A DNA stretch of 64,000 nucleotides from a virus (IMGVR_UViG_3300013121_000049:80253-144252); one strand, 5' to 3'. Shown: positions 7,268 through 62,050, counted from the first letter of the stretch. The notes: generated from the letters alone by a model not told the origin. Translations and numbers: made by a program.

Positions 7268-7331
7268 AGTGAAATCTCTCGGGAATGCGTAAATCTTAGC
7301 ACAGCCGTTCGTTCAATTTATCCGCAGGGTT

Positions 7332-7340
7332 TGGCATAAG
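7332..7340 (+). promoter_or_regulatory. promoter-like motif TGGCATAAG, a variant of the recurring TGGTATAAG element
   Basis: Lies 31 nt upstream of the ATG at 7371, at the divergent junction. Confidence 0.35.
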
Positions 7341-7370
7341 GACTATGACCTCAACACAGCGGAGTAAAGC

Positions 7371-7688
7371 ATGCACTTGTTAACTTGGTCTCAGACTTTT
7401 TTCCTGGGCCGTGAACTCGGTCCGGTTTTTCCCATCACCATCCCGGCGGATACCGCCGTGGAAAAAACGCGCGGTATGACGTCTGTCCGCAAGGCAGACT
7501 TCGTCCTGACGGCGCGCGTTGACGGCGCAAAAAACACCTTCAAGGTCTGGATCGATCCTATGAAAGGACTGGTCCTCGTCCTGTCCGGGAAAGCCGGCTA
7601 TGAGCAGGCCGGTCTGTTCTGGACGGCAGACCCGGACAAGGTGGCATCCGTCCTCCGCATCAAAGGGTATTCACCATGCGCCGCCTGA
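7371..7688 (+). CDS. hypothetical protein (105 aa)
   Basis: ORF with a GGAG motif 9 nt upstream. It is the first gene of a small plus-strand island. Confidence 0.5.
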   Translation: MHLLTWSQTFFLGRELGPVFPITIPADTAVEKTRGMTSVRKADFVLTARVDGAKNTFKVWIDPMKGLVLVLSGKAGYEQAGLFWTADPDKVASVLRIKGYSPCAA

Positions 7689-7951
7689 TCTTTTCGTTGT
7701 CCATGCCCAGGGTAAACTCCTGGAACGGCAAGTGGTCCAAGGAAGGCTGCTCCCTGTGGCTTGCCCGTGATGTCCCGGAAGGGCGCGCGGAACAGCTCCT
7801 CAACGAAGGCCCGTTCGATTACGACTTCGGCGACGGCTGGACCGCCCGCATCATTGTTTCCAGCACAGAACCGAAAGAACCATCCACAGGCTTCTGTGGC
7901 TACGACTGGATGGTCGACAGCCTGCTGGCCTGCGGGAGTATCTGCTCCTAG
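7676..7951 (+). CDS. hypothetical protein (91 aa)
   Basis: ORF that overlaps the previous gene by 13 nt. Confidence 0.45.
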   Translation: MRRLIFSLSMPRVNSWNGKWSKEGCSLWLARDVPEGRAEQLLNEGPFDYDFGDGWTARIIVSSTEPKEPSTGFCGYDWMVDSLLACGSICS

Positions 7952-7971
7952 TCATTTTTGACGGAGTAGGT

Positions 7972-7980
7972 TGGTATAAG
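7972..7980 (+). promoter_or_regulatory. promoter-like motif TGGTATAAG (extended -10-like)
   Basis: Exact copy of the recurring motif, 32 nt upstream of the ATG at 8012. Confidence 0.5.
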
Positions 7981-8011
7981 ATAGTACTCAACAAACAAAG
8001 AGGTGGTTAGC

Positions 8012-8224
8012 ATGAACCCTTACCTGAAAGAGATGGAGAAAGTCGCTGGTGTCCTGCAGAACGCGGGCGCTGCAATCAAGAAGCAGCTTACGACTCCCCT
8101 CAAGGTACAAGGGGGCCGCATCGTCAAGCAGATGCACCCCGACGACGAAAAGGCGTTGGCAAAAGCCATCAAGGATAAGATGGCAAATGGTGAAGTAAAG
8201 CACGTCACCGGAATTTTTGATTAA
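8012..8224 (+). CDS. small hypothetical protein (70 aa, Lys-rich)
   Basis: ATG at 8012 preceded by an AAAGAGGTGG ribosome-binding site. It sits between a promoter motif and a terminator. Confidence 0.55.
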   Translation: MNPYLKEMEKVAGVLQNAGAAIKKQLTTPLKVQGGRIVKQMHPDDEKALAKAIKDKMANGEVKHVTGIFD

Positions 8225-8253
8225 AAAGAAAAGGGCCTCGCGCCCTTTTCTTT
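8222..8253. terminator. bidirectional intrinsic terminator (A-tract, AGGGC-ctcgc-GCCCT stem-loop, T-tract)
   Basis: Hairpin at 8232-8246 flanked by AAAAAGAAAA and TTTTCTTT. It lies at the convergent junction with the minus-strand gene 8262..9314. The downstream flank CTTTTCTTTAGCCGRRATTACC is shared with the terminator at 26096-26127. Confidence 0.7.
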
Positions 8254-8261
8254 AGCCGAAA

Positions 8262-9314
8262 TTACCTCCGAAACCCTTTGCTCCCCAGCAACTGGAGCAC
8301 GGACGAAGACAGGTTTGTCCCGATCTTGCTGGCCAGGGAAGGTTTGCTCAGCTCAACGACTTGTCGGGCAACATCCGGGGCCATTCGGCGTGCTTTGCTC
8401 AGTAGGTTGGAGAAGTTTTTCGGGCGGGACTCCGCCCACGGAATACCTAGCCCTTTTGTAACAAAATTGGCCTCCCCTGCCGATTGGCGCCAAGAATTGG
8501 TCAAAGACAAGGGGTGTGTCCCGCTATTCTCCATGGAGTATCGGTCTGCGTCATAAAATATGCCCAGATCTCCTTTTTGCGTGGATTTCACCACTTGTCT
8601 GGCGGACACGGCAGGCGGCACGATGTGGTCATAGGGGTCATGCCCCCTGTCCAGGCTCTCTCTTGCCAGTACTGCAGGGCTGACGTGAGAGTATACCCTG
8701 GGCACCTTATCCAACCCGACGTTAGGACCGTGTTTTTGGAGCAACCGCCTGCTCTCGTCATACTCGTAGAACTCATGACGATGGGCCTTGACATCCTGAA
8801 GCCGGCGAAGGTCCTCTGCCACATTACCGGAGGGACCCAGTAGCGGGGGGACTCGAATGTCTGCGTGCATTACCCCCGTTCCGGGGTGATATGACGTTAC
8901 TTTTGTCTCGTATTGAGCCTTGGGGTGATAGGACTCGTTGATGTTTGTCTTCGGGATAACATTGATAGGGCGAGCTTCATAGGTACGAAGATCCGGGGTA
9001 ACTCCGCCTCTCCGCAGGATTGCATCCGCCATTGCTCGCGTACCTTTGGTTTGCCCCTCAAGGTATTGCGCGGGAGACCGGAGAACCCCTCTGTCTTGCA
9101 ATTCTTGCAGCCGTGACATCGGATATTTTTCCCGGTTATCCGCGATGTGACGGGACAACCTGTTGGCCTCCTTGACCAATGCCTGCCCCTCCTTTGCCCG
9201 CCGGGCCACGCTGAGCGCAATAGCCACTGCCTGCTTCTGCGGCTTACCCGCCGCCATTTCTGTGCGAATATTCTGGGAGATGGCTTCTCGGGAATCGGAG
9301 GGGATCAGCGGCAT
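8262..9314 (-). CDS. hypothetical virion-associated protein (350 aa)
   Basis: Last gene of the long minus-strand structural operon. It ends KGFRR, with its stop next to the terminator. Confidence 0.6.
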   Translation of the reverse strand: MPLIPSDSREAISQNIRTEMAAGKPQKQAVAIALSVARRAKEGQALVKEANRLSRHIADNREKYPMSRLQELQDRGVLRSPAQYLEGQTKGTRAMADAILRRGGVTPDLRTYEARPINVIPKTNINESYHPKAQYETKVTSYHPGTGVMHADIRVPPLLGPSGNVAEDLRRLQDVKAHRHEFYEYDESRRLLQKHGPNVGLDKVPRVYSHVSPAVLARESLDRGHDPYDHIVPPAVSARQVVKSTQKGDLGIFYDADRYSMENSGTHPLSLTNSWRQSAGEANFVTKGLGIPWAESRPKNFSNLLSKARRMAPDVARQVVELSKPSLASKIGTNLSSSVLQLLGSKGFRR

Positions 9315-9477: not shown

Positions 9478-10746
9478 TCAGACGTGATGCCACTTACGGG
9501 CGTTCAGCGCAAACTGGGCCATGTGACGGAGGTGAGCGTTTTCCGTAGTAGCCAAGACGTGACGCAGGGATTCCTCGGAAATGCGCTCGCCTTGCGGGAC
9601 GCCCATGGCGGCATGGAGGTCGCCCCTGTGCGCGGGGTTAACGGGTTGGAAGTCGGCGGAAGCCTGCTTGCTGATCAGCGGCATACGGTCAAACCGCGCC
9701 TGCGCCCGCGGCGTTCCCGACGCGCCCAGTACAGCGCCCAGCGCGGCTGCTGCGGGGACAGCGTATTTCAACCGAACCCCGGGAATCATGCTCAGGCCTA
9801 CCCCCGTAATACCTCCGGCAAGGGCTCCTGTTGTCGACCGACCCAGCATGGTGGGGCGGTGTACTTCGCTAGGTTGCAGCCACCCTTCCCGGATACCCTG
9901 GTCGATCCGGTGATCCCGGTATACCTGCAGCCCTACGCCCGCAGCCGCTCCACCGAGAGACCCCGCTGCCGCCCATGCAGGGCTGGCGCCGCCTCCCAGC
10001 CAACTGCCCAGCATGCCGCCCCAGATCGCTCCGGAAACTTTGTCAGTATCCCCGGGGTAGACATACTTGACCTGAGGGCGAGAGTCCTCCGCCGACTTGG
10101 TTAGAAATTGCCGAGCCAGCGACAGGGAAGATTGCTTAAAAATACCTGTGTACATGGGATTAAGGCTCCCCGTAGATGGATGGAACGGGAGACTATCTGC
10201 CGCGAGTATTTCTCCCAGGTCTGCCGAAGATGATTTGGCAGTGGCCAAGAGATACTGATCATACTTATGGCGAAGGCTATTCGGAACAGAGTCTTTGTGA
10301 TGAAAAGCCTCCTGGAACTTATCATGGATGCTTCCCTCTCTAAGCCTGGAGGTAAGGTCGCTCTCCAGCTCCGGATACCTCGAATATGCCCCCGCTTGAA
10401 GCGCTGCTTTTCTGGAAGAAATATCGGAAAAATGAGCCTGCATGGCCCGCCAGTCCTCTGGGGTTGGCGAAGCTGCGTGCGTAATCACCGGAGTAGGGCC
10501 GTTCATAAAATTTTTTAAGGGCTCCCGAATAGAGGGAGGGACTTCCCCTATGTCCTTGCGCAAGGCGTCAATCGTACCTGTCGCGTGAGCCAACCCGCCC
10601 CGCAAAGCTCTCCTTCGAAGACTGACCGCAAGCGCCCCTCCCCCCAGCAACGCTCCGCCGGCCAACGCCAAGCCGGGCAGGTTTACAGGCTGGCCATGCT
10701 TGCGCGTGGCTTCCGGCGGAGTATTACGAGAGGACAGGACGCTCAT
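9478..10746 (-). CDS. hypothetical Gly-rich protein (422 aa), possibly an internal virion protein
   Basis: Complete ORF with Gly/Ala-rich hydrophobic stretches. Its start is 2 nt from the upstream stop. Confidence 0.6.
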   Translation of the reverse strand: MSVLSSRNTPPEATRKHGQPVNLPGLALAGGALLGGGALAVSLRRRALRGGLAHATGTIDALRKDIGEVPPSIREPLKNFMNGPTPVITHAASPTPEDWRAMQAHFSDISSRKAALQAGAYSRYPELESDLTSRLREGSIHDKFQEAFHHKDSVPNSLRHKYDQYLLATAKSSSADLGEILAADSLPFHPSTGSLNPMYTGIFKQSSLSLARQFLTKSAEDSRPQVKYVYPGDTDKVSGAIWGGMLGSWLGGGASPAWAAAGSLGGAAAGVGLQVYRDHRIDQGIREGWLQPSEVHRPTMLGRSTTGALAGGITGVGLSMIPGVRLKYAVPAAAALGAVLGASGTPRAQARFDRMPLISKQASADFQPVNPAHRGDLHAAMGVPQGERISEESLRHVLATTENAHLRHMAQFALNARKWHHV

Positions 10747-10747
10747 G

Positions 10748-11263
10748 TCAGGCCGCCTTCACGATGTAATCGGTGTCGTTGAACTGGAAGCTGTTGGCGG
10801 TGAGCGCCATGCCCAGAACCTGGTGAATGGATCCGGTGCCTTGAGCACTGATCGGGGTAGCCGTCGCACCGCCCGGCGTGGTCGCCGACAGGTAGTAACG
10901 GGTGTCCGGGGTCAGGCCGGTCAGCGCGGTGTTCACGCCGTCAAAATATACCATGACGCCGGTCGCATTGGCGGCAGCCGATTGCAGGACGAAGCCTTCG
11001 GCGTAGTGGCCGCCGGCGGAAGCCACTGCGTTGGCAATCTTGCCATCACTGCGGATGTAGACGAAAGCGCCAGCCGCCAAGTTTTCGAAAGCCGTGCCCG
11101 TATAGGTGTCCGGGCCGATGCCGACCGGCATGAAGGACAGATCGAGACGACCGTTGGCGTCAAGGGCGGGGATGGCGCCGGCGCTGGAGATACCGGCGCT
11201 GGCAGTGATCGCCACGACTTCGGAGGTCTTGCCGTTGACGAGGGCGAGATAGGTAGTAGCCAT
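10748..11263 (-). CDS. hypothetical structural protein (171 aa), Ala/Gly/Thr-rich
   Basis: ORF in the structural operon. Confidence 0.55.
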   Translation of the reverse strand: MATTYLALVNGKTSEVVAITASAGISSAGAIPALDANGRLDLSFMPVGIGPDTYTGTAFENLAAGAFVYIRSDGKIANAVASAGGHYAEGFVLQSAAANATGVMVYFDGVNTALTGLTPDTRYYLSATTPGGATATPISAQGTGSIHQVLGMALTANSFQFNDTDYIVKAA

Positions 11264-26135: not shown

Positions 26136-29100
26136 TTACCCGAGAGGTCGGACCCCATTGCTGACATCCGCCGGCGCGCTCATGCCCGCCTGGCTCTGGT
26201 ACTCGAAGGTCGTCTTCGAAAGGAAGTCCTCGACGCCCTGCGGGTAGAACTCGCTGGGCGGCAGGATGTACGGCGCGCTCTTCGGGTCGCCCTCGGCGTG
26301 GTTGTGGCTGACCGACTCGCCCGAAGCCTGCTTGTGGTGACTGCCGATGACGACCTCCTGGTTCTCGTGGACCTTGCCGGCCTTGAGCGCCGCCACGGCT
26401 TCCGCCTCTGTGGCGAAGTGCACGGTCTTCTGCGTCTCGTCCTTGCTGGTCAGATGTACGCTGCCCAGGATGGCCTCGTGGCCGGGCGCAAACATCGAGT
26501 AGCCGTAGCCCTTGCGCACGTCGTTGATGTGGTGCATTGGCAGCAGCTTGGCCTTGGCCTCGGCGATGGCTTCCGGCGTCATCGGCAAGTGCATGGTCAT
26601 GGCGTCGCCGTCGAAGTCCGCGCCGAACGCCGGCAAGTGCAGCGGATTCAGGCCGATCGTGTTTTCCTTGGTCGGCACCGGATAGATGGCCAGCTCGTTA
26701 GTCCGCAGCAGGGTCGGCGCGCGGTTCAGCAGCAGCGGGATGTCCTTGATGCAGCGGTTGAACGCATAGGTCGCCAGGTTGTCGCGCTTGGTGTAGGAAT
26801 CCAACGCCTCGGGCATCGACATGCCCTGCTTCGCCAGGAAACGCAGGATGTGGTACTTGTAGAGCACCCACAGCTGGTCCACCGGGATGCGGGCCTCGTT
26901 GAAGCCGACATCCGGGGCAGCATAGATCGTCGCCCGTCCCGAGAAGTTCTGCTTGCGCGCCAGCAACCGGTCATGAAACACCCCGGTCTTCGGCCCGCCT
27001 TCCCCGGCGATCTGCTTGATGAACCCCTTCAGCGGCTTCTTGGCGCCGATGTTGTCGCCCAAACCCATGATGGCCGCTGCGCCCTGATAGAGGTCCTTGC
27101 GCATGGGCACCAGGGCATCCGGCGTCGAATCCGCGAGGTTCTTCTTCAGGGTCTTGCTGACCAAGATGTGATCGTTGTACAGGTTGTTGACGTCCGCGAA
27201 GTGCAGACTGCCGCCGCCCTGATCCATGAAGGGGCGCATGACCGGGGGCAGCACGGGCATGTGCTTGATGACGTAGGCGTCCGCCGGGTTGGAGAATCCG
27301 CTCTTCTGCAGGCCGCGCAGGTACTTGGCGCGCTTCACCTCGTCATCTCGCGCCGATACCGACTTCAGGTTGACGGCGTTGTGCACGGAGGTCTTCAGCG
27401 CCTCGTCGACATCGATGTTGGCCAGCAACTCCTTGAACGCCTCGCCGCCCACCTTGATCTTGTCGTCGTTGTAGGCTTCGTCGGCGTCCGCCTTCTTGGT
27501 CATGCCGACACCGGTCTTGCCGATGTGAATATCCCGGACCTTGGACTGGTTCAGCGTGTCGTAGAGGCCGTAGTGTCCCGGCGCAATCTTCTGCACGCCG
27601 TAAGAGCCGTCAGTCAGCCGATCGAACTCGTCCGCGCTCAGCTTGAGCACCGACTTCACGGGCATCTCGAAGGTAGGGTTCACGATGGGCTCGGCCAACG
27701 TGTAGTGCGACCACTTGGTGCCCTCCGGGCCGCCGGTAATGATGGGGTCGAACATGCCGCCTTTCTCAGGCTGCAGGGTGCGCGCCAACAGGCGGCCCTC
27801 GTTGACCTCGCCGCCGCTCATCTCCAGGATCTTGTGGTCGGTCAGCGGGGCCAGCGTCACTTTGTCGTTGGCCGTGCGCACATCGATGCCGGCGCCCTTC
27901 AGGTAGCCCAAGAACTTGTCGGTGGCAAAGGTCGTCTTCGGCTTGGGAAGCGGCTCGCCATTCTGGAAGGCCTTCCAGAACTCCTCGTTCTTCTCGGCCT
28001 TGATGGTCGACATCTCCTGCAGGTTCTTGCGGGCGTTGGACCCCAGCAAGGCCAGGAATTCCATGTAGGCCGTCCGCTTGGATCCCTCTTCCCCGCCCTT
28101 GGACGGCTGGCGCCAGGAGTCATAGCCACCCTCGACGTTGCGGGCGCTGTAATTGGAGTCCGTGGTCTTGTAGGTCTTGACCACGTAATGCGGGCCGCCG
28201 AAGACCTTGGGCAACACCTTGCCGGAGACCGGATCCACCAGCACGTCATGCTGCTTGAGCCCGTGCGCCTTCAGCTCGTCCTTGATCTTGCGGACAGAGT
28301 CCCCGGCGTTCTCATAGTTGTGGACCACATACTGCTTGCCCGTCTTCTGGGCAATGCGACCGGCCGCCGTCTCCAGGACCGATCCCAGGTTGATCCGGGA
28401 GGTGACCGAAGCCGGGTTGAAGATGGCGTCGACGGGTTTCCCCGTCTCCTGGTTATAGGGCATCTGCTCGTCCGGGACGATCTTGGAGACCACGCCCTTG
28501 TTGCCATGAAAGCCGGTCAGCTTGTCGCCTACCTCCAGGTGCTTCACCGAGCGCGTCAGGATGCGAACCTCCTTGCCATCGGTGTGGGCCTCGATGACCT
28601 CGCCGGGCTCCTCGTGCGTCCAGTACTCCACGACTGCCAGGTACGGGGAAACCAGCTGCTTGCTGATGCGGTGGTACATCAGGTCGGTCGTGCTCATCGT
28701 GCGCGGCTTGAGCACCGCCCAGATGGGATCGCCGTAGCGCAGGGTCTGGCCTTTCTGGATGAAGCCGCGACTGTCCAGCTTGGCCAGCTGGTCGGACTTC
28801 AGCAGGGACGGGAACGTCTTGCGGAACAGCGCCCGATCGGTCTTCATGTCCGTCGTCAGGGACAGGTCGTACTTGTAGGCGTGGTGGCTGGACAGCTTCT
28901 CGGCCGCGCCTTGGCTGACCACGATGCCGTCTTCATGGTTGAAGCCGTGGTACGGCATGAAAGCCACGTTCAGGTTGCGGCCCAGCGCCAGTTCCCCGCC
29001 GCGCGTGTAGTTGCTGTCGTACAGGGACTGCCCCTTCTCGACGCGATCGCCCACCTTGACCAGCGGGGCCTCATCATCGCGGAACCCCTTCTGGTTGTAT

Positions 29101-30905
29101 GGCAGGTTGACCACGCGGGCGACCTTGGCCGTCTTCCCGTCATCCCCGCGGATCTCCATCCCGGTGTCGGTGATCTTGCTCACCGTGCCGCTCACCGGGC
29201 TGATCGTGGTCATGATCTTCCCATAGACCTTGGTGAACGGGACCTCCCTGCCGTTCCGGTCACGGGTGGCCGTGGTTACCAGCGGCGCCTCGCGGTCCTT
29301 CAGGGAGAGCGCCTGGACGATGGCCTTGCCCGCCATGGTCAGACGACCCGGATGGTCGGCGTTCATGAACGGCACCAGGTTGGTGGTGACCGTGTACATG
29401 TCCGTCGGCTTCTCCACCCAGTACTGGACCTTGGACTCCGGGACGTTCTTCAGGACGCCGTGATCCTGGGCCTGCACCAAGCCGTTCTTCTTGCCGATCG
29501 TGAACCCGATGCAAGCGTTCATGATCTGGGACGCCGACAGGTAGACCGAGCGCCCCTTGGTGTCCTTGAACCGGCCGTAAAGGTTGCCCTTGGCGTCGCG
29601 CGCCGAGTTGATGGCAAAGCGCAAGTCGACGCCCACCGTGTCGGCTTCCGGCGTCCGGCTGGGATCCAGGATGGTCAGGTGGGACGGGTCAATGTTGCGC
29701 GTCCGGACGTTGTTGGCTTTCTGCAGATCGATGCCGCCTTCCCCCTCGCCCAGAACGGTGACCTTGGCCACGTTCTCCAGGGACTCGATGGGGTTGGTTT
29801 CCGACGGCACGATCGACAGCGTGGACTTGGTCAGGAAGTTCTGCATGACCTTGTTGTAGGGCTTGGAGACCACGACCTTGCGGATCTTCGGCGTCTCCTT
29901 GGACAAGACGGCGCGGTCCAGCCCCCACTTGATCTTGCGGCTGGCGTCGCTGACGTTCTCGTGTTCGCGGCCCTGTTCAAACCGCCGGGCAATCAGGTCC
30001 GGGTAGCTCACGACCCGCTTGAACTGCAGGGAGTCGCGGTTGTCTTCCTCGCGCTCGCCCTTGTGGATGGCGATGATGTTGGCGGCGATACGCAGCAGGG
30101 CATCGCCATCCAGATGCCCAAAGGACTTGCCCAGGGTGACCTTGGTGCCGTCTTCATCCAGGGTACGCTTCTCCAGCCCGACCTTGATCCACTTGATCTT
30201 CTCGGCTTGCGCGGGGTCCGGGTTGGCCTTGCGCTGCTCGTACGGAGCCACCTTGCGATACAGGCGGTTGGCGATGCCGTCGCTATCCCCGGACTCCATC
30301 AGATCCTTGTCCCAGATGGCCGTGGGAATGTAGGCGGACGCTTTCTGCCGGTCGATGCCGAAGACGTGGCTGAGCACCCAGACCAGCGGCACGTTGATGT
30401 CGCCGCTGCTCAGGATCAACGTCTGCTTGCGCGGGTCCAGGGACACTTCCAGGGAGCCGCCGCCGGAGTTGATCTGGGCCATGACAGCGCCGTTGCTGCG
30501 CCGACGATGGTAGACGCCCTCCTTGAGCTGCAGGAGGTGGGAGATGACGTAGTTGTTGCCCTTGTAGACGACCGTGTGCTTGTCCGTCAGGTGAAAGCAG
30601 TCGGCCAGGGCGTAGTTCTTCTCTTCGTCGACCGTCTTCCCCGTCTGCTTGTCGATGATGCGCAGGGTGCCGCGCACCGGGAACGTCAGGGACTTCGATT
30701 CCAGGATCGCCTTCTTTTCGTCTTCCTTGTCGAACGTCTTGCGATCGATCGTGATGTCCGAGACCTCGATACGGTAGCGGGCGTTCTCGATGGGGAACTG
30801 CTTGCGCACGCCATCCACGATGGCCTGGCAAACATCGTTCAGCGTGCTGTCCGGAGACGAGATCATGTGCTTCAGCGGCTTGCCGTCGAGACTGGTCAGG
30901 CTCAT
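26136..30905 (-). CDS. DNA-directed RNA polymerase: a complete beta-like subunit fused to the N-terminal half of beta-prime (through the NADFDGD catalytic region), 1589 aa
   Basis: Beta-subunit blocks: [12 protein letters not shown] (compare GYNFEDSILVSE), [25 protein letters not shown] (compare [25 protein letters not shown]), and LGEGEGGID...TPEADTVGV. Beta-prime blocks: [16 protein letters not shown] and [25 protein letters not shown]. The start is at the ATG that forms an ATGA overlap with the upstream stop; a GTG at 30914 is an alternative. Confidence 0.92.
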   Translation of the reverse strand: [1589 protein letters not shown]

Positions 30906-31330
30906 AGTTGCCACCCCTCACCCGGTTCCTCGTCTTTCTTCGGCGTCTCGAAGACCACGCCCTCGTAGGGCGCATCCTTCGGCTCCAGATACGTCAGGAC
31001 GACGATCATCTCGCCCTCCTTGTTGAAGGATTCCTTGCGGTCCACCAGGTAGATCCGCGTGGTCTCCGAGTGGATACAGGCGTCCAGCAGGCTCTCCAGC
31101 ATCAGTTCCTGCTCGGCAAACCCGGACAGCAGGAACCGCTTGACCCGGAGCTTGTAGTCGGCCAGTTTGAACCCGGCCCGGCCGGGAGCCTTGTCCTTTA
31201 CCGCGGCTTCCTCGTCAAGGTTGCGCAGGGTGACCCCCGGCATGGCTGCCGAATAGTCCTGCAGACCGACTCCCGCGTTCTCCGGAAGGTTGGGGGCATT
31301 GACCCCCGGCGTCTTGTCACGCGGCGGCAT
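30902..31330 (-). CDS. hypothetical acidic protein (142 aa), translationally coupled to the RNA polymerase gene
   Basis: ORF 30902..31381, trimmed to the Met after the GGAGGA ribosome-binding site. Its stop overlaps the RNA polymerase start. Confidence 0.5.
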   Translation of the reverse strand: MPPRDKTPGVNAPNLPENAGVGLQDYSAAMPGVTLRNLDEEAAVKDKAPGRAGFKLADYKLRVKRFLLSGFAEQELMLESLLDACIHSETTRIYLVDRKESFNKEGEMIVVLTYLEPKDAPYEGVVFETPKKDEEPGEGWQL

Positions 31331-43086: not shown

Positions 43087-43147
43087 CTGGCCCCCGGAGC
43101 CCGAGGATAACGAGGATGACTCGTTAGACCTCGATGTCGTGGGCTGA
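43070..43147 (+). CDS. small acidic peptide (25 aa) MQAHINWPPEPEDNEDDSLDLDVVG
   Basis: Paralogue of the 41179 peptide. It overlaps the end of gene 42451..43086 in another frame. It is also antisense to the last 24 nt of the sigma factor gene. A terminator follows. Confidence 0.3.
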   Translation: MQAHINWPPEPEDNEDDSLDLDVVG

Positions 43148-44032
43148 CTCAACGACGGCCTCCTCCGGGAGGCCTTTTTTTACATAGAATTGCCGGATCT
43201 TGCGCATGGCCGCAGTCTGCAGACGACGGACCTCGGACACCGTGCACCCCATATCCTGAGACAGCTGACTGATACTCTGCTTGGCCGCGCCGGCCAGCTC
43301 GAACATCGCCGAAATGACGCGCCACTCCCGAGAGGAAAGCATGGCCTGCAGGCGCCCGCACAAGAGGTCGTCATCCATGCTCTGGATGAGGTCATCTGAG
43401 AAGTCGGCCACCGTGAGGGGGGCCAGGGTAATGTCTGATCGCGCAACGGCGTCATCAATGTCGGCAGAGGAGTGGCGAGAGGAGTGTGAAGACAGGATGC
43501 CGCGGAGGATGTCATCGATGTAGACGGTGACGTACAGGGTCTTTCGCAAGTTGGCGATGATCTCCGTACTGGTGGATGGCGCGCACCGCTGCTGAAGCTC
43601 GACATCCGTGATCCTGGGTTCCTTGGCCAGGATGTCGCGTATCTTCACGGCAAGCTGCTGCTGCCACACGGGGAGCTTGACCAGCCTGAGCTTCTGCTGC
43701 GTCCGCCACTGGCACTGGTTTACCCACCACCCGGCGTAGGTCAGGAACTTGTGCCCGCGCTTGTAGTCGAACCGCGACAGGGCGATACACAGACCTTCGT
43801 TCCCCGCCGCCACCAGTTCTTCGAACTCATAGGCACCCAGTTTACGAGCACGCAGCTTGGCCTGCTTGGCGACAAACATGATGCACGACCGGACGATCTT
43901 GTCGCGGGCCGCATCCTTTTTCCAGCGCGGCGCTTCCGGATCCTCCAGTGTGGCGAACAGAGACTGCTCCTCCTCCCGGCTCAAGGGCTTTTGTTTTGAA
44001 ACCAGGGTGAAATAGGAGGATATTGGATCCAC
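43124..44032 (-). CDS. sigma-70 family RNA polymerase sigma factor (302 aa)
   Basis: Region 2: IMFVAKQAKLRARKLGAYEFEELVAAGNEGLCIALSRFDYKRGHKFLTYAGWWVNQCQWRT, which has the FSTYATWWIRQAI-type pattern. Region 4: SSREWRVISAMFELAGAAKQSISQLSQDMGCTVSEVRRLQTAAMRKIR. The start is a GTG with a weak ribosome-binding site, so it is uncertain. Confidence 0.85.
   Translation of the reverse strand: MDPISSYFTLVSKQKPLSREEEQSLFATLEDPEAPRWKKDAARDKIVRSCIMFVAKQAKLRARKLGAYEFEELVAAGNEGLCIALSRFDYKRGHKFLTYAGWWVNQCQWRTQQKLRLVKLPVWQQQLAVKIRDILAKEPRITDVELQQRCAPSTSTEIIANLRKTLYVTVYIDDILRGILSSHSSRHSSADIDDAVARSDITLAPLTVADFSDDLIQSMDDDLLCGRLQAMLSSREWRVISAMFELAGAAKQSISQLSQDMGCTVSEVRRLQTAAMRKIRQFYVKKGLPEEAVVESAHDIEV
43157..43181 (+). 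terminator. intrinsic terminator (GGCCTCC-tccg-GGAGGCC followed by TTTTTTT), located inside the 3' coding region of the convergent sigma gene
   Basis: A 7 bp stem followed by a T7 tract. On the opposite strand the same bases encode ...KKGLPEEAVV of the sigma factor. Confidence 0.65.
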
Positions 44033-54976: not shown

Positions 54977-55228
54977 ATGCTGACACGTCATGGCTTTGAA
55001 TATTCGCTGCGGTCCACGCAGCGATTCATTGCCGACATGACAAGGACCGGCATGCTGGTTGTCCACCCGGAGGACCCGCAGCCATCGGAACACATGCGGC
55101 GCGGCCTCAACCCCGACCATCCGGTTGTCCGGGCGTGGGTGACCGGCGAACCGGTGCCCTACCCGACGTTCAAACAATCCGTTTCCCTGAGCCGCGGCCC
55201 GCGGCTCCCTCTTCAGGTGAATCCATGA
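54977..55228 (+). CDS. small hypothetical protein (about 83 aa; possible HTH); start uncertain (a TTG at 54917 is an alternative)
   Basis: ORF 54803..55228. Its upstream part overlaps the previous gene. Its stop forms an ATGA overlap with the GHKL gene. Confidence 0.3.
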   Translation: MLTRHGFEYSLRSTQRFIADMTRTGMLVVHPEDPQPSEHMRRGLNPDHPVVRAWVTGEPVPYPTFKQSVSLSRGPRLPLQVNP

Positions 55229-57117
55229 GCAACATCTCCATGCAGGTCTCCACGTCCAAGCTGATGCAGAGCCTGACCTATGCCTTCAACTCCCCGCGGT
55301 CTGTGCTCGGCGAGCTCCTGCAAAACTCCCGCCGGGCAAAAGCGAAAAACATCGTGCTGACCGTCGAGATGACCTTCTTGCGGCCGGATGGCGAACCTCT
55401 GGTAGTCACGCTGGGCCGCGATGAATGGGACGCTGTTTCCAGCGACTTCATGAACGCCGCGTACACCAGCCATGTTCGTCGAGATCTGAAGAACACCACC
55501 CTGACCTCATTGAGCTTCGAGGTCTGCGACGACGGCTGCGGCATCGACGACTTCCAGAAGCTCTTCTGCCTGGCCGACTCCGGCTGGTCGGACGACGTGA
55601 TGGAGGCGGAAGGCCCCTACGGCCTGGGGTTCTTCTCGGCTATCGTCAGCGCACCGCGTATCCTGTTGTCCAGCCGGGGCATTCGCCTGGACGTCAACTC
55701 CGCCGCGCTCATCTCCGGCAATGGCGTCGCCATTACGGAGACGCACACAGAGGACACGGGGAAGACGGTTGTCCGCCTTGAGGGAATTGATGCCTCCCGG
55801 ATGATCTCCGGTAACCTCACGGTGGACTCCTACGCCTACTCCAAGATGTGCTACGCCAATCTGGTCGAATACATCCAGAAGCTGGTCCAGGCGTTCCCTG
55901 TCCCGGTCCGCCTCCCCGACGGCTACCGCATCCAGTCTCCCTTTGCGGATATCCCCGGACGCCACGGTGTCGCCCTGCCCTGCGGCAGTCGAGCTATTTT
56001 CGGCCGCCCGGTAACAGGTCTCACTGCGTTCCGCAAGCCCGAGCAGGAAGCTGAGTTCTGGAAGCGGTACGTTCGCTATGCCGGCTCAATGTCCACCAGC
56101 GTGATGTACAGCCTGCAGAGCTTGCCTATTGAGGTATCCACCACCGGCATGCTGCCATCGCACGGCAGCCGGTCCCGTCGGTACTACCACGCCATGGTGC
56201 ATCTCAACTCTCGCAGCTACCGGGGCCGCCTGCCGGACCGCAGCCACATTTACGGCGAAGACGAACGCAGTGCGGACCTCACGGCTATTCGGGAGGACCT
56301 TTACGGCATGGTGGCGAAGCGGCGGATTGACCGCGAAGCCCCGCAGTTTGGCGACAACGTCTGGGCAGACGCCGCCATCCGCTGGTTGATGCCCATCTTT
56401 TCGGGCAGGTCCGTAGTGCACGGAATGGTGCCCATGATCGAGATGGTTCCGTCGTCTATCTGCATGGGACCGCGCTTGGGGTCACCCCATCGTTTTCAAG
56501 GCAGCGATACCCTGGCCAAGACAATGGATCTGGCCAGACTGCTCGGGGCAAGCCGCCAAATCCTCTGCCGGGACATGCTGTCGTCCGACGGAAGCTGCCC
56601 CTTGACCACCCCGGAAACCATGGTGCTGGTCGCGTCGTTTTCTTACGTAGTGGACACTGTATTCACCGAGGTTTACCCGGAAGTCCCTGTGACCACGGTA
56701 TCCTCTGTGGTAGAAGAGACAAGGGCTATCGTCAACCGAATTCAAGACCGCAAAGACGAGGCTCCGATTGTCATTCGCGCAGGTCTCCCGGAGTTCGTTT
56801 TTCACGAAGACCCGGTCCCCGCCATGTTCATCATCGGTAACCGCGCGTATCTTCCGAAACGACCGGGGATCACCCAGGAAGTTGCCGGCAAGCGATTGGC
56901 GCATATCCACCGGACGTCCTCTTACCCGAGCGCTCACCTCAAGGAGTTTGTGGCGGCGGCCTTGAAAGGCATGGGCCTGGACGAGGGGTTCCTGCTCAAG
57001 GAGTTCCGTGACAACCTCAACGATGACAGCGAGTTTCGCCAGCTGATTTCCGGCGGGGCTTTTACCCTCACCTTTGATGACAAGGGAGAACTGACGTATG
57101 TCGCAAGAGTACGGTAG
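55225..57117 (+). CDS. MutL-like GHKL-family ATPase (630 aa)
   Basis: N-box ELLQNSRRAKAK (compare MutL ELVENSLDAGAT; the Asp is replaced by Arg). G1 box VCDDGCGID (compare DNGCGI). G2 box PYGLGFFSAIVSA (compare GFRGEALASIS). Its size matches MutL. Confidence 0.7.
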   Translation: MSNISMQVSTSKLMQSLTYAFNSPRSVLGELLQNSRRAKAKNIVLTVEMTFLRPDGEPLVVTLGRDEWDAVSSDFMNAAYTSHVRRDLKNTTLTSLSFEVCDDGCGIDDFQKLFCLADSGWSDDVMEAEGPYGLGFFSAIVSAPRILLSSRGIRLDVNSAALISGNGVAITETHTEDTGKTVVRLEGIDASRMISGNLTVDSYAYSKMCYANLVEYIQKLVQAFPVPVRLPDGYRIQSPFADIPGRHGVALPCGSRAIFGRPVTGLTAFRKPEQEAEFWKRYVRYAGSMSTSVMYSLQSLPIEVSTTGMLPSHGSRSRRYYHAMVHLNSRSYRGRLPDRSHIYGEDERSADLTAIREDLYGMVAKRRIDREAPQFGDNVWADAAIRWLMPIFSGRSVVHGMVPMIEMVPSSICMGPRLGSPHRFQGSDTLAKTMDLARLLGASRQILCRDMLSSDGSCPLTTPETMVLVASFSYVVDTVFTEVYPEVPVTTVSSVVEETRAIVNRIQDRKDEAPIVIRAGLPEFVFHEDPVPAMFIIGNRAYLPKRPGITQEVAGKRLAHIHRTSSYPSAHLKEFVAAALKGMGLDEGFLLKEFRDNLNDDSEFRQLISGGAFTLTFDDKGELTYVARVR

Positions 57118-58630
57118 CCGTGCGCCTCGCCGCCGGTCCAGCCTGTCTGTGCTTCAGGAGCCCGGCGACCAGGTCACCGTCACCGTAGGCCAGGACACCG
57201 TAAAGGTGTCCGCGTCAGCCGACGATCCGCCGTGGGACAGAGAGCCTGTCCCCGTCTTTGACCTCCCGGACGAACCCGTGGTTCCTTCCCGACTGGCGGC
57301 GGAAAAGCCGGCTGAGAAGAAGCCCAAGAAAATCCTGATCCGCGACATGACGGCGGATCAGGTCTACGCGGCCGTGGAAGAACGCGGCAAGGTCACGCCG
57401 TCCCTGCAGGCCAGATTGAAGGAGATCGAGGACTTTTCCCAACTGTCCCCCCGCTGGTGCGAAAAGATTTGCCAGGCGCCTTGCGGAAAGAACCCCAACA
57501 CCACGGTTCGCGGCGACGCGGACATTGTCATCCTCACGTCGGTCAAATCCAGCGGCTCCCGCTTCAAGACCGGCGACGAGGAGGACAAGAAGCGTATCGA
57601 GGTCTGGTCTTTCATTGCCAACCGCGTGGCGCCGGACCTGCGCATCAAGGTCGTCTACGGCATGATCTGCCGCCCGGAGTTCCCCGACGGAACGCCGGAA
57701 AAAGACCGCAAGGTCAGCATGAGCAAGATCAAGCCGTGCTTTGCCTACCAGGAGCATTACCTGCGGACGCACCGGCCCAAGGTCATCATCGCCACCAGCG
57801 CGGCCGACCTTGGCCTGCTGGGCATCAAGGTGTCGATGAACAAGGGCTTGTCCAGCATCCAGGAATGGAACGGCATCCCCGTGGTGGTGACGCTGAACGT
57901 CGCACAAACCATGATGATCCGCCAGAACCAGCAGGGCGGTCGATGGGGCGTCGACATGTTCTTCCTCATCCAGAAGGACCTGGAGAAGGCCGCACGGATT
58001 GCCCGCGGCGAGTTCAACCCGGTAGGGCGATCCCCGGTGGACGTGATGAACTGGATGCGGTCCACAGGGCAACTGAAGGTTCTGGACACCCTGCAGAAAG
58101 TCCGAGAGTTCTGCATGCACGCGGCGTCCCTGCCGGCCAACAAGATGCTGACCTTCGACATCGAGTCGACGGGGCTGGATCCCTGGGCGGAAGACGCGCG
58201 CATCCTGACCATCCAGTTCGGCCTGACGGTCAACGGCAGGTCGGACGGGTTTGTCGTCCCCCTCTGGCACCGGGACAACCGGTTCTACAACCCCGACGAC
58301 GCATGGACGCTGGTTGCCATGGTCCTGACGGCTGACGTCAGCAAGGCCGGCCACGACGGGCGATTCGACATCCGCTACATCCAGGTCACGACGGGCGTCC
58401 GTGTCCGTAACTATCGGCTGGACACGTTGCTGCTCTTGCACTCGCGATCCAGCGGGCTGCAGAAATGCTACGGTCTGAAGAAAGCCGTCTGGGACGAAAT
58501 ACCGGAAAGCGGTCTTGGCGGGTACGACGACGTGATCGTCGAGAAGACCCCTGAAGAAGCGCTTGAGGATGACCCCGAAGACCTGGCCGACAACCCATTG
58601 GAGGAGCCTATTGAAGCCGCTCAATCTTGA
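57098..58630 (+). CDS. DNA polymerase I-family protein, N-terminal part: a domain of unknown identity (possibly UDG-like) plus 3'-5' exonuclease motifs Exo I and Exo II
   Basis: Exo I motif MLTFDIESTGLDPW. It overlaps the GHKL gene by 20 nt. The Exo III motif is absent here and is found at the N-terminus of the 59474 gene. Confidence 0.75.
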   Translation: MSQEYGSRAPRRRSSLSVLQEPGDQVTVTVGQDTVKVSASADDPPWDREPVPVFDLPDEPVVPSRLAAEKPAEKKPKKILIRDMTADQVYAAVEERGKVTPSLQARLKEIEDFSQLSPRWCEKICQAPCGKNPNTTVRGDADIVILTSVKSSGSRFKTGDEEDKKRIEVWSFIANRVAPDLRIKVVYGMICRPEFPDGTPEKDRKVSMSKIKPCFAYQEHYLRTHRPKVIIATSAADLGLLGIKVSMNKGLSSIQEWNGIPVVVTLNVAQTMMIRQNQQGGRWGVDMFFLIQKDLEKAARIARGEFNPVGRSPVDVMNWMRSTGQLKVLDTLQKVREFCMHAASLPANKMLTFDIESTGLDPWAEDARILTIQFGLTVNGRSDGFVVPLWHRDNRFYNPDDAWTLVAMVLTADVSKAGHDGRFDIRYIQVTTGVRVRNYRLDTLLLLHSRSSGLQKCYGLKKAVWDEIPESGLGGYDDVIVEKTPEEALEDDPEDLADNPLEEPIEAAQS

Positions 58631-58634
58631 TGGC

Positions 58635-59090
58635 ATGCTAGGGGGACTGTCCGACTGGACCCTCCCCATGCCCGCCATCGACACGAACCAGCCAGCCCTT
58701 ATCGGTGGGCAAACCGCAGTATTCATCCGCCAGGACCAGATCGGCCCTAACGTGGTCCTGTACTTTTGCAAACAGTCGTCGATCGAGGTGTCCCCTTTCA
58801 AGATCGACGGCACGCCGTACAGCGCCGGAGACATCGCCTTGATGGGGTTGTCCGGTGTAGCCAGCGATTCCCCGGTAGCCAATGGCAGCGCCAATACCGA
58901 CACGATCTACATCGTGATGCGGCGCGGCTCCTACAAGGTGGTCCATGATTTGAAGGAGGTGCTCGCCGAGAGCACCTTGCTCGGTGTTCGTCCGGAGGGG
59001 CTTCTTGAACTGCAGGTGGGACTGCTCAACGAAGCCCCGACGGCGATTCTCAGCGCGGAAGTGCTCAACGTCGATTCCGTCTTGCACTAG
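58635..59090 (+). CDS. hypothetical protein (151 aa), encoded between the two DNA polymerase fragments
   Basis: ORF 58563..59090, trimmed to the ATG at 58635. The ribosome-binding site is weak. Confidence 0.4.
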   Translation: MLGGLSDWTLPMPAIDTNQPALIGGQTAVFIRQDQIGPNVVLYFCKQSSIEVSPFKIDGTPYSAGDIALMGLSGVASDSPVANGSANTDTIYIVMRRGSYKVVHDLKEVLAESTLLGVRPEGLLELQVGLLNEAPTAILSAEVLNVDSVLH

Positions 59091-59415
59091 GCGGTTGGCC
59101 GTCGTCCTGGTAAGCCTCAATGAGCAGGCTCAGGACTTCCTCCAGCCGCTTTTCCGCCGCCAAGAGGCGATCGTCTACGGCCTTGTGGCGTAATGCCTCC
59201 ATTTCCTTGTAATGCTCGATGTGGGTGCGAAGCTCCTCTACGGTAGCTTCCACCCGGCTTTTCCACGTCTCCTCTTCGATCAGATCCTTCTTTTTTTGCC
59301 GGAAGTAATTCACGCCATTCCATAGGATGGTGACGACTCCCGAGATGAAGCCCACGATGGCGAGAACATACCCCATCAGGTCTTTTGTGGTATCAGGATT
59401 AGGAGGAGCAGCCAT
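59065..59415 (-). CDS. single-pass membrane protein with a cytoplasmic coiled coil (116 aa); the only minus-strand gene in the plus-strand replication cluster
   Basis: Transmembrane helix LMGYVLAIVGFISGVVTILW followed by charged heptad-like EEETWKSRVEATVEELRTHIEHYKEMEALRH. Confidence 0.5.
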   Translation of the reverse strand: MAAPPNPDTTKDLMGYVLAIVGFISGVVTILWNGVNYFRQKKKDLIEEETWKSRVEATVEELRTHIEHYKEMEALRHKAVDDRLLAAEKRLEEVLSLLIEAYQDDGQPPSARRNRR

Positions 59416-59473
59416 TTTTGCTAGCCTTTCTTGCGGGAGGTTTTGATGATTTTACCCCATAGGAGATGTCCGT

Positions 59474-61132
59474 ATGGCTAAGGCGAAAAACATTGCCTTT
59501 GAAAACGTGGACTTCCACGACCTGTGCAATTACGCGGGGACGGATGGCATCGTGACCCTGGAGATCATGAAGCGGATCTGGCCGGACGTAACCCGCAAAC
59601 CGATCTACCGGTATTTCTTCCAGAACGGCGAGGTCAAGGACATCGTCCTGCCGTCCATTGTCGAGGAGATGGATACCGTCAAGATGCCTGCCCACGAATT
59701 CCTCACGGACATGGAGGTTGAGGGCATGCCCTACGACAAGGAGCGCGCCGAGATCATGGGCACGGCGATGCGCCGGGAGATCGAGAGCCTGGAGCGTCGC
59801 ATCCACGACTTCATCGACCCCGGCTACAACCTGGATTCGGACAAGGATTTGACGGCCCTGCTCTATACGCCGCAGGGATTCAACCTCAAGTCGCCGTTCA
59901 AGACGAAGAAGGGCGGCGAAGCCACCAGCTACGAAGCTCTGGAAGTCCTGATTGGCAACTACCCGGAGCACGAAGCCTGGCTGAAGCCGCTGGCTCGCCG
60001 CCGCAAGGTCGCCGGCATCTACCGGGGCTTCATCGAGACCTACCGGGAAAAATACGTGCGCCGCGACGGCAAGGTGCACGCCAGCTACAACTTGTTCGGG
60101 ACGAGTTCACACCGCATTTCGTCGAACGATCCGAACATGCTCAACCTGCCGGCTTGGCGGTCCAGCAAACCATACGACCTGCGCAGCCTGTATACCGTGC
60201 CGCGCAAGATGTCGCCGGACGGCCTGAACGTCATCAACGAAATCTTCGCCTTCATCACGATGGACTTCTCTTCTTGCGAAGTGAAGATCTTGGCGGCGCT
60301 CTGCGAAGACGAGGGGCTGATCCAGGCCTGCCGGGAGGGCAAGGATTTCCATACGTACACCTTCAGTACGATTTCCGGCATCCCGTACGACGACATTCGC
60401 AAGGTACTGAAGGCCAGCGAAGCCGCCCTGAAAGCAGACCCGACTCTGGCCAAACTCCATGAGGAGTATAGTGATCAGAGGCAAGCCTATAAGGCAACGA
60501 CCTTTGGACTTATCTATGGGTCCTCTAATGAAGCGATTGCTACTGGTATCGGCAGGCCCATTGATGAGGTCAACAAGATCATCGAGGCGTACTTCACGAC
60601 GTTCCCGAAGATCAAGACGTTCATCGAAAACGCGCACCGCATGGCGATCCACAATCACTACCTGGTGACGCCGTTCGGTCAGCGCAAGCAAGCCGCCGGC
60701 ACCCTGCCGTGCTTCCGCAAGACGGCGGTCTACAACGCCAGCCTGCGTAACGCCCAGAACTTCCTGGTGCAGAGCACCGCATCGACGTTGGGTCTGCTGG
60801 TCTTCACCGAGATCAACAAGAAACTGCGCGAGATGGGCGGCGCCGTGATCTGCACGGTGTACGACTCCTGGGAAGGCTACGTCCCGATTTCCCGACTGGC
60901 GGAAGCTGTCGAGATGGGCTTTTACTACATGAACGATTGGCCGCAACAGCAATGGAGCTGGCTGACGTTCCCGATTGGCGCCGACGCGGAAGTCGGCATC
61001 AACTGGGGCAAGTCGCTGCAAGAAGTGAAGCGCGGCGTGACCCAGGAACAGTGCCTGAAGGCCGTGGAGGAGTCCCGGCATCTTCAGGAAAAATACGACC
61101 AACAAATGTGGGACGCCGCCTACGCGGCCTAA
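59474..61132 (+). CDS. DNA polymerase I-family polymerase domain (552 aa), with Exo III at its N-terminus
   Basis: Exo III YxxxD (CNYAGTDGIVTLEI). Motif A ITMDFSSCEVKILA. Motif B RQAYKATTFGLIYGSS. Motif C ICTVYDSWEG. GGAG ribosome-binding site. Confidence 0.88.
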   Translation: MAKAKNIAFENVDFHDLCNYAGTDGIVTLEIMKRIWPDVTRKPIYRYFFQNGEVKDIVLPSIVEEMDTVKMPAHEFLTDMEVEGMPYDKERAEIMGTAMRREIESLERRIHDFIDPGYNLDSDKDLTALLYTPQGFNLKSPFKTKKGGEATSYEALEVLIGNYPEHEAWLKPLARRRKVAGIYRGFIETYREKYVRRDGKVHASYNLFGTSSHRISSNDPNMLNLPAWRSSKPYDLRSLYTVPRKMSPDGLNVINEIFAFITMDFSSCEVKILAALCEDEGLIQACREGKDFHTYTFSTISGIPYDDIRKVLKASEAALKADPTLAKLHEEYSDQRQAYKATTFGLIYGSSNEAIATGIGRPIDEVNKIIEAYFTTFPKIKTFIENAHRMAIHNHYLVTPFGQRKQAAGTLPCFRKTAVYNASLRNAQNFLVQSTASTLGLLVFTEINKKLREMGGAVICTVYDSWEGYVPISRLAEAVEMGFYYMNDWPQQQWSWLTFPIGADAEVGINWGKSLQEVKRGVTQEQCLKAVEESRHLQEKYDQQMWDAAYAA

Positions 61133-61147
61133 CCACGGAGATCCTCA

Positions 61148-62050
61148 ATGACTGGTTTTCTGATGTTCTTCTCGATTGTGTTCGCTGTCTGGGCTATCTG
61201 CTGCAAGGTGTTCAAATCCGACCAGCACGCCCCGGGCATCCTCAAGCTGCCGGTTGCGTTGCCTGCAGCTCTCTCCGCAGTCATGCTGCTGGCCTCGCTG
61301 GCCAGCCTGTTCAACCCTTTCGTGACCATTGGCCAAACCCAGGTGGGCGTTCTGAAGCAGTGGGGGCGCATCGCTTCGGACGACGGCCTGTCGCCCGGCC
61401 TGCACACCGTCATCCCCGTCATGCAGACCGTGGACATCTGGGACGTATCCTTCACCAAGACTGCCGGGAAATCCGATGCTTCCAGCCGCGACGTGCAGCG
61501 CACGACGACGGAGTGGGCGCTGACCTGGCACCTTGATCCGAAAGCTGTGGTTCCCTTGGCCAAGCGTTCCGGGAAGGACTTCGAGACGACGCTGATCCAG
61601 CCCGCCGTGCAGGAATCCCTGAAGTCGGTGACCGCCAAGTTCACCGCGGAAAACCTGATCGCCCAGCGGGAGGACGTGCGCAGCCAGGTCGACGCCCTGC
61701 TCAACGAAAAGCTCAGCAAGTACGGCATCCGCATCGACCAGTTCGCCATCATGAACTTCGACTTCAGCCGCCAGTTTGACAGCGCGGTCGAGGCCAAGCA
61801 GCAGGCCGAGCAAATGGCGCTGAAGGCCAAGAATGACCTGGACCGCGTGAAGATCGAAGCCGAGCAGAAGGTCGCCCAGGCCCAGGCGGAGGCCGACGCC
61901 TTGCGGGCCCAGCGCGAGCAGATCACCCCCGAGCTTCTGGAGCTTCGCCGCGTGCAAGTCGCCCAGGAAGCCGTTGCCAAGTGGGATGGCCGCCTGCCGA
62001 CAACCAACGCCGGCGGCGCGCTGCCCTTCCTTGACCTCGTCAAGAAGTAA
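61148..62050 (+). CDS. SPFH/Band-7 (prohibitin/HflKC-like) membrane protein
   Basis: N-terminal transmembrane helix (FLMFFSIVFAVWAICC). SPFH core. C-terminal prohibitin-like coiled coil (AVEAKQQAEQMALKAKNDLDRVKIEAEQKVAQAQAEADALRA). Confidence 0.8.
   Translation: MTGFLMFFSIVFAVWAICCKVFKSDQHAPGILKLPVALPAALSAVMLLASLASLFNPFVTIGQTQVGVLKQWGRIASDDGLSPGLHTVIPVMQTVDIWDVSFTKTAGKSDASSRDVQRTTTEWALTWHLDPKAVVPLAKRSGKDFETTLIQPAVQESLKSVTAKFTAENLIAQREDVRSQVDALLNEKLSKYGIRIDQFAIMNFDFSRQFDSAVEAKQQAEQMALKAKNDLDRVKIEAEQKVAQAQAEADALRAQREQITPELLELRRVQVAQEAVAKWDGRLPTTNAGGALPFLDLVKK

Follow-up and report, generated by a model that had tools for sequence, protein, structure and literature searches.

Split DNA polymerases and polymerases of the PolA family that carry a uracil-DNA glycosylase-like domain (UDG-PolAs) are both already known from phages. 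The viral DNA stretch IMGVR_UViG_3300013121_000049:80253-144252 (64,000 nucleotides, hereafter the window) encodes a UDG-PolA in two separate plus-strand genes, an N-subunit gene at 57098-58630 and a C-subunit gene at 59474-61132, and the cut falls inside the 3′-5′ exonuclease domain. We consider it likely that these genes encode a two-subunit, UDG-type, family A replicative polymerase that arose by ancient fission in the loop between exonuclease motifs Exo II and Exo III and is rejoined non-covalently.

UDG-PolAs occur in N4-like, SPO1/SP-10, and SP15-like phages as single chains with the domain order UDG-like, 3′-5′ exonuclease, polymerase. The UDG domain of the N4-like proteins lacks catalytic residues and has been proposed to be inactive, with a structural or DNA-binding role (PMC10201439). 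SP15-like UDG-PolAs have an ordered “Insert 1” within the exonuclease domain as well as an Insert 2 (thumb) and a C-terminal domain (10.1101/2025.03.26.645540).

Among split polymerases, the S-SBP1-like T7-type cyanophages and the LUZ24-like Pseudomonas phages have separate exonuclease and polymerase genes whose products presumably reassemble, and for S-SBP1 non-covalent reassembly has been modelled (PMC10201439). In LUZ24, the “exonuclease subunit” and “part II” are eight unrelated genes apart, including one for a membrane protein, and the polymerase gene contains an intron. LUZ24 gp25 carries Exo I, II, and III, which places the cut at the exonuclease/polymerase boundary, and S-SBP1 is described alike. 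OM43 phages have split DNA polymerases with a small open reading frame (ORF) inserted. The chimallivirus PhiKZ encodes its polymerase as two distant genes, DNAP-N and DNAP-C, whose products form a stable 1:1 enzyme with catalytic residues from both chains, as seen in the cryo-electron microscopy structure of the reassembled halves (PMC13648687). The PhiKZ enzyme differs from that of the window: it is a family B polymerase whose cut is located in an insertion of the palm, it includes Rhc as a third subunit, and it is not homologous to the locus.

The window polymerase keeps the UDG-PolA domain order, with the cut located between Exo II and Exo III. The N part ends in a stop codon after its acidic tail, and 844 nucleotides downstream a gene of its own encodes the C part, so that the UDG-like, exonuclease, and polymerase domains do not lie on a single polypeptide. 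In contrast to S-SBP1 and LUZ24, the cut is inside the exonuclease fold, the exonuclease active site would be drawn from two chains, and the N piece also includes the UDG-like domain. The closest described counterparts are orthologous pieces with an identical cut site and 34-49% identity in Salmonella phage Arash (gp168c and gp154c+gp152c) and Vibrio phage D69 (0209 and 0207+0203), both of which are, like the window phage, large and equipped with a multisubunit RNA polymerase. They differ in that the gap holds 13 genes or 1 gene, respectively, and in that the C gene has a group I intron (shown for Arash), while the window gene has none. Each part has its own annotation, “uracil DNA glycosylase” for one and “DNA polymerase nu/theta” for the other, and the split goes undiscussed in the Arash paper (PMC10585845). 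A literature search found no description of an Exo II/Exo III split or of a split UDG-PolA, and the cut is thus a newly described variant.

The N and C subunits

The N-subunit gene encodes 510 residues arranged as a disordered leader, a family-4 UDG-like domain, the first two-thirds of a DEDDy exonuclease domain, and an acidic tail. Its assignment draws on Pfam and PHROG matches, on 43 homologues from an index of 5.8 billion proteins (35 of which were aligned), and on an AlphaFold2 model with a predicted local distance difference test score (pLDDT) of 79.8; the start at ATG 57098 is backed by the N-terminus of the homologue P0002. The match of the protein to Pfam DNA_pol_A_exo1 (PF01612; E 9e-7) is confined to positions 4-108 of the 173-position profile, and in phrog_17 (DNA polymerase) the protein covers positions 544-762. 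A phmmer search of the PDB with the single N fragment gave no match; a profile of the family was needed, which aligns with residues 14-128 of the Klenow chain, the region of Exo I and Exo II.

The N-terminal part of the exonuclease domain (residues ~325-480, 58070-58537), defined by the PF01612 match and the Klenow alignment, contains Exo I as FDIES (58154-58168, with D354/E356 at 58157-58165), Exo II as GHDGRFD (58349-58369, with D424 at 58367-58369), and a conserved GLGGYD at 58511-58528. Residues D354, E356, F423, D424, G475, and Y476 are invariant in the 35 aligned sequences. The low-complexity leader (residues 1 to ~75, 57098-57322; pLDDT <50 for residues 1-69) is present in the window protein and P0002 only and absent in the other 33 aligned homologues. 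At the other end, the acidic C-terminal tail comprises 34 residues with a net charge of -13 (58526-58627; pLDDT <50 for residues 491-510). The Arash orthologue of the N fragment, gp168, has been detected by mass spectrometry (PMC10585845).

The initial annotation had given no identity to the N-terminal ~330 residues, which now resolve into the leader and a family-4 UDG-like domain (residues ~85-300, 57350-57997). The N-family profile matches family-4 UDG and UdgX structures in the PDB (E~1e-6), PF03167 is matched by 23 of the 35 family members, and Foldseek with the AlphaFold2 model retrieves 1L9G, 4ZBX, 1UI0, and UdgX at probability 1.0. By tblastn, the UDG and exonuclease regions of the N fragment match SPO1 gp31, SP-10, and related polymerases. 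Family-4 UDGs bind a [4Fe-4S] cluster through four cysteine ligands. Cysteines C121, C125, C191, and C214, which are invariant or nearly so in the alignment, fit this pattern, and the domain probably binds an Fe-S cluster. Active family-4 enzymes carry a GE[AG]PG-like motif A and a motif B histidine (HP..), neither of which occurs in the window protein. Its sequence is LTSVKSS and TLNVAQ at the positions that we take to be catalytic motifs A and B, where most relatives have IIQDH and TLHPK. Because the usual catalytic residues are missing at these positions, the window domain is predicted to be catalytically inactive and to have a structural or DNA-binding role.

The C-subunit gene encodes 552 residues with Exo III, thumb, palm, and fingers (PF00476, E 1.4e-52) and is uninterrupted in the window phage. 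The protein covers phrog_17 positions 801-1233 and, from its own residue 4, aligns with Klenow chain residues 157-426. Since the coverage of phrog_17 and Klenow is consecutive, the N and C proteins are successive pieces of one polymerase profile. Alignment with Klenow locates Exo III as YAGTD (Y20-D24, 59531-59545), and alignment with Taq, which places MDFSSCEV at motif A, locates the three family A polymerase motifs within the PF00476 domain: motif A MDFSSCEVKILA (60260-60295), motif B RQAYKATTFGLIYG (60479-60520), and motif C TVYDS (60854-60868). In a paired N/C alignment, Y20, A21, G22, and D24 of Exo III are invariant. The DEDDy exonuclease is thus complete in trans only, with Exo I and II in N and Exo III in C. 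Profile searches and the Klenow and Taq alignments bear out the motif assignment of the initial annotation for both halves, and its four-ORF layout, with a 151-residue plus-strand ORF (58635-59090, the middle gene) and a 116-residue minus-strand gene (59065-59415) between the halves, is likewise present.

Proposed fission and reassembly, and alternatives

The break falls in a surface loop between Exo II and Exo III. All 43 N-fragment homologues in the protein index are 402-512 residues long and none is full length, and all 35 aligned homologues end with (E)SGLGGY(E/D) followed by an acidic tail. Around 20 genomic contexts of relatives were gathered (given here as L numbers, L001 being Arash, OQ632216). 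An alignment-based scan of viral contigs found relatives, whereas a single-protein scan found none. The C-fragment gene is downstream on the same strand in all 17 related loci with enough flank. In seven loci (L008, L009, L010, L012, L013, L014, and L016), the N and C genes abut in different frames with no gene in the gap. An 8-nucleotide overlap, (A/G)TGnnGATTAA, is common to L009, L012, L013, and L014 and probably reflects translationally coupled genes rather than a sequencing frameshift. At other loci, unrelated genes lie in the gap: one in D69, two in the window and L007, five in L003 and L040, seven in L005/L006, and 13 in Arash and L011.

More distant relatives (L017, L018, L021, L025, L030, and L019; ~24-28% identity) encode UDG, exonuclease, and polymerase domains in a single ORF of ~1000 residues, and most of them carry a ~130-residue acidic-then-basic insertion exactly after the GYED motif. 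With the fused relative L017 as query, a structure search brought up neither YerA41 nor phiLo structures. In a neighbour-joining tree of the N-terminal 330 residues of the C fragment, the split forms make up one clade with the fused forms outside.

Because the same split exists without an insert at seven loci, the gap content varies, and the outgroups are fused with a loop at this point, the split is best read as an old gene fission whose junction later became an insertion hotspot; the acidic tail would be the remnant of the fission loop. In the proposed sequence of events, a stop and a start arose in a long, flexible, charged loop of the exonuclease domain, and the two resulting genes would have stayed adjacent, overlapping in some lineages and probably translationally coupled. 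The junction would then have served as a permissive intergenic site that was filled with 0 to 13 genes depending on the lineage, with an old, conserved two-gene cassette as the filler in the sub-lineage of the window. The initial annotation had described a PolA gene split by its intervening genes: the position of the cut inside the 3′-5′ exonuclease domain stands, but with seven loci lacking an insert, these genes are not supported as its cause.

The two proteins would be translated separately and associate non-covalently, which would rebuild the proofreading site and yield a stable polymerase. The N subunit would provide the exonuclease β-sheet core with D354, E356, and D424, while the Exo III helix (Y20, D24) and the polymerase domain in its entirety would come from the C subunit. 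The halves presumably have to reassemble, as the initial annotation had supposed: the catalytic residues of both do not vary within the family, no splicing signal was found, and S-SBP1 and PhiKZ offer precedents. From this conservation and these precedents, both sites are also predicted to be active.

Several points weigh against this account. Motif C has YDS, not HDE. In relatives with adjacent genes, a basic N-terminal head of C accompanies the acidic tail of N, and this head is almost absent in the window, where its net charge is -1; an electrostatic zipper between tail and head was rejected as a general mechanism on this ground. The N and C genes are probably in separate transcription units in the window lineage, given the hairpin between the cassette genes of L003 that we read as a terminator (see below), so stoichiometric co-expression is not guaranteed. 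Finally, the neighbour-joining tree is a quick one without support values.

The probable separate transcription also lends something to the alternative that survives best, although we regard it as unlikely, namely that the halves are uncoupled, with C acting as an exonuclease-deficient polymerase and N as an independent DNA-binding or UDG-like factor. The two genes are up to 8 kb apart in Arash, whose proteome table includes gp168 without gp152 or gp154. However, were there no shared active site, the invariance of Exo I/II in N and of the Exo III tyrosine and aspartate in C would be difficult to account for. In addition, N and C are found together at all loci with sufficient flank, and PolAs are reported to need the exonuclease domain for stability (PMC10201439).

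Less probable is a recent moron or selfish insertion, in the form of the minus gene and its neighbour, that broke an intact polymerase gene. The G+C content at third codon positions (GC3) of the minus gene is 0.63 compared to ~0.8 in its neighbours, G+C dips locally to 0.51-0.56, and a TnpB gene in the gap of L039 shows that mobile elements use the site. The minus gene is also alone in its orientation over ~20 kb (44.1-64 kb); the 28 kb given in the initial annotation is too long, because the minus strand also carries a sigma-like gene at 43124-44032. Its lower GC3 is the sole feature that deviates in the direction of mobile insertion. Against such an event, the identical split occurs without an insert in seven loci, and homologues of the cassette pair are syntenic at 25-40% identity in at least six lineages. 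No direct or inverted repeats flank the gap, only short chance repeats being present, and Pfam and PHROG searches found no transposase, integrase, or homing-endonuclease domain in either intervening gene. Moreover, the 3′ end of the N gene encodes the acidic tail seen throughout the family and is not that of a truncated exon. The earlier view of the minus gene as an inserted moron or selfish element does not hold up on this evidence.

Slightly less credible still is that an intron, a cis or split intein, or programmed frameshifting restores the halves to a single polypeptide. Both window halves are in the same reading frame, and introns are known from the polymerase genes of SPO1-like and LUZ24-like phages. 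Group I introns (RF00028) also occur in the polymerase C gene of two relatives, Arash (OQ632216, 3257-3528, minus strand) and L033 (1976-2201, plus strand), at a site equal to window residue ~344. With a gathering score of 50, these introns score 58.9 bits in Arash and 79.1 bits in L033 and served as positive controls for the Rfam library, which detected no group I/II intron within 56500-61500 of the window at E<=5. In Arash, the annotated ORF gp153c sits inside the intron, and gp154c (“DNA polymerase nu”) and gp152c (“theta”) are exons of one gene. A Pfam search of the N, middle, and C proteins found no intein, Hint, or LAGLIDADG domain at E<=0.1, and the junction residues are the acidic low-complexity tail and MAKAK, not intein termini. 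The gap holds two protein genes, one of them antisense, and that of Arash spans 8 kb with 13 genes; adjacent-type C genes have their own ATG or GTG at a fixed overlap. The relatives show two kinds of interruption, universal fission and sporadic introns, of which the window has the fission only.

The C-terminal part of the polymerase gene is interrupted elsewhere by ORFs in L003 (5505-6431, plus strand, 308 residues) and L037 (2487-2942, plus strand, 151 residues). Neither is accompanied by an Rfam intron at the gathering threshold, and a weak HNH_3 match is present in L037 only. A reading of the 308-residue ORF as a Vsr/DUF559-like endonuclease was dropped, as it had no Pfam support.

A sequencing or assembly artefact, which the initial annotation had named as a potential refutation, or a decaying pseudogene can be set aside: apart from the window being part of a metagenomic contig (JGI, 144 kb), nothing specific speaks for either, while the same architecture recurs in more than 40 independent sequences (JGI, Logan, ENA, and NCBI) and in two isolated phages, GC3 is 0.82-0.83 in both halves, and the catalytic residues are invariant.

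If the fission reading holds, a proofreading active site has been kept over long evolutionary time while divided between two polypeptides. The split UDG-type PolAs would form a sizeable, essentially undescribed clade in phages of 90-200 kb with their own multisubunit RNA polymerase, for which the public annotations are misleading. The range from fused forms with a long loop through adjacent overlapping genes to 1 to 13 inserted genes offers a natural series for the study of insertion hotspots, and the cut sites offer natural break points for split-polymerase engineering.

The two-gene cassette

The middle gene (58635-59090, plus strand; GC3 0.79) encodes an all-beta protein of 151 residues. 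It probably starts at M12 (58668, 140 residues), a start favoured because the JGI gene call and the homologue N-termini agree. An exhaustive HMMER search defines a small family of 146-152 residues with 25-41% identity; multi-repeat matches of P0046, P0051, and P0054 were discarded as spurious. The AlphaFold2 model (pLDDT 76.6) has weak matches to Tudor/KOW/SH3-like folds (Z <=5.2), and a fold search in BFVD returned nothing at E<=0.001.

The minus-strand gene (59065-59415) encodes 116 residues with an N-terminal transmembrane helix (residues 13-31) and a conserved coiled coil, assigned from hydropathy and homologues. Its G+C content at second codon positions is 0.37, JGI called the identical ORF (P0045), and both intervening ORFs look coding. 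The two genes converge with a 3′ overlap of 26 nucleotides. On its other side, the minus gene is separated from the C gene by a divergent intergenic region of 58 nucleotides (59416-59473), in which GGAG is located 8 nucleotides upstream of ATG 59474. This region presumably holds the promoter(s) for both divergent genes, although a scan for sigma-70-like promoters that included it found no site.

Homologues of the minus gene are syntenic in L003, L033, L036, L037, and L039, with W51, L62, R63, I66, H68, and E71 invariant. In L003, L033, L037, and L039, homologues of both cassette genes immediately precede the PolA C gene, with order and orientation unchanged. The middle and minus genes are also found in L036, and the N fragment together with the middle gene in L038. 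In the neighbour-joining tree, the cassette-bearing genomes and L040 make up one sub-clade, and for this reason a single acquisition of the cassette in the distant past, followed by retention in most cases, is probable. The L040 copy of the middle gene is broken into two ORFs (10476-11036, plus strand; hmmsearch E 6e-5 and 1e-7) and its minus partner is gone, which looks like decay of the cassette. In L039, the TnpB (OrfB_IS605/Cas12f-like) gene is inserted between the two cassette genes (1571-2647, plus strand). L003 has a hairpin with flanking A/T runs between its convergent cassette genes, which we read as a bidirectional terminator.

Word-index searches with both cassette proteins retrieved only themselves. 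Against Pfam and PHROG, neither the cassette families nor the intervening ORFs in relatives had a match above threshold; the sub-threshold matches were phrog_1863 and an Rz-like spanin for the membrane protein and HNH_3 for L037. The toxin-like or superinfection-exclusion role that the initial annotation had suggested for the membrane protein is neither supported nor contradicted by these results. Tentatively, and with rather low confidence, the cassette may be part of the replication machine, with the all-beta protein as an accessory subunit bound either to the split exonuclease domain or to DNA. An analogue for such a role is found in CCPol, an exonuclease-truncated PolA, whose β-barrel MP protein is predicted by AlphaFold2 to bind the remaining exonuclease helices. 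The membrane/coiled-coil protein could tether the complex, or its gene could time C-subunit expression through antisense or convergent transcription. If this were true, the PolA holoenzyme of the sub-clade would consist of three or four components.

Genomic setting

The window has a G+C content of ~60% and derives from a large phage. Among named phages, the closest are Salmonella phage Arash (181 kb), an “orphan”, and the Vibrio phages D69, D181, and D148 (187 kb), with protein identities of 32-49%; a megablast search of phage records with the locus gave no match at the DNA level. The 8-kb gap of Arash holds genes for nicotinamide adenine dinucleotide salvage (5755-9242), a nicotinamide phosphoribosyltransferase and a nicotinamide mononucleotide adenylyltransferase/ADP-ribose pyrophosphatase.

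Other genes of the window encode a SNF2 helicase, a Toprim primase, a PD-(D/E)XK nuclease, a MazG/dUTPase_2-like protein, and a sigma-like factor. The last of these, the sigma-70-like protein mentioned above, has regions 2 and 4 and matches phrog_351 (E 5e-24). A single ORF of 1592 residues (26136-30914, minus strand) contains Rpb2 domain 6 (residues 615-940) and Rpb1 domains 1-2 (residues 1212-1454) and, from this domain content, is assigned as a fused beta/beta′ RNA polymerase module. Known multisubunit RNA polymerases of phages are usually divided into more genes, not fewer.

Directly upstream of the N gene, a 660-residue protein (55135-57117, plus strand) has a weak GHKL/HATPase_c_3 match at its N-terminus (E 6e-4) and no match in PHROG; the 3′ end of its gene overlaps the start of the N gene by 20 nucleotides. 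Immediately 3′ of the C gene, an SPFH/Band-7 membrane protein is encoded at 61148-62050 on the plus strand (PF01145, E 6e-29; phrog_200).

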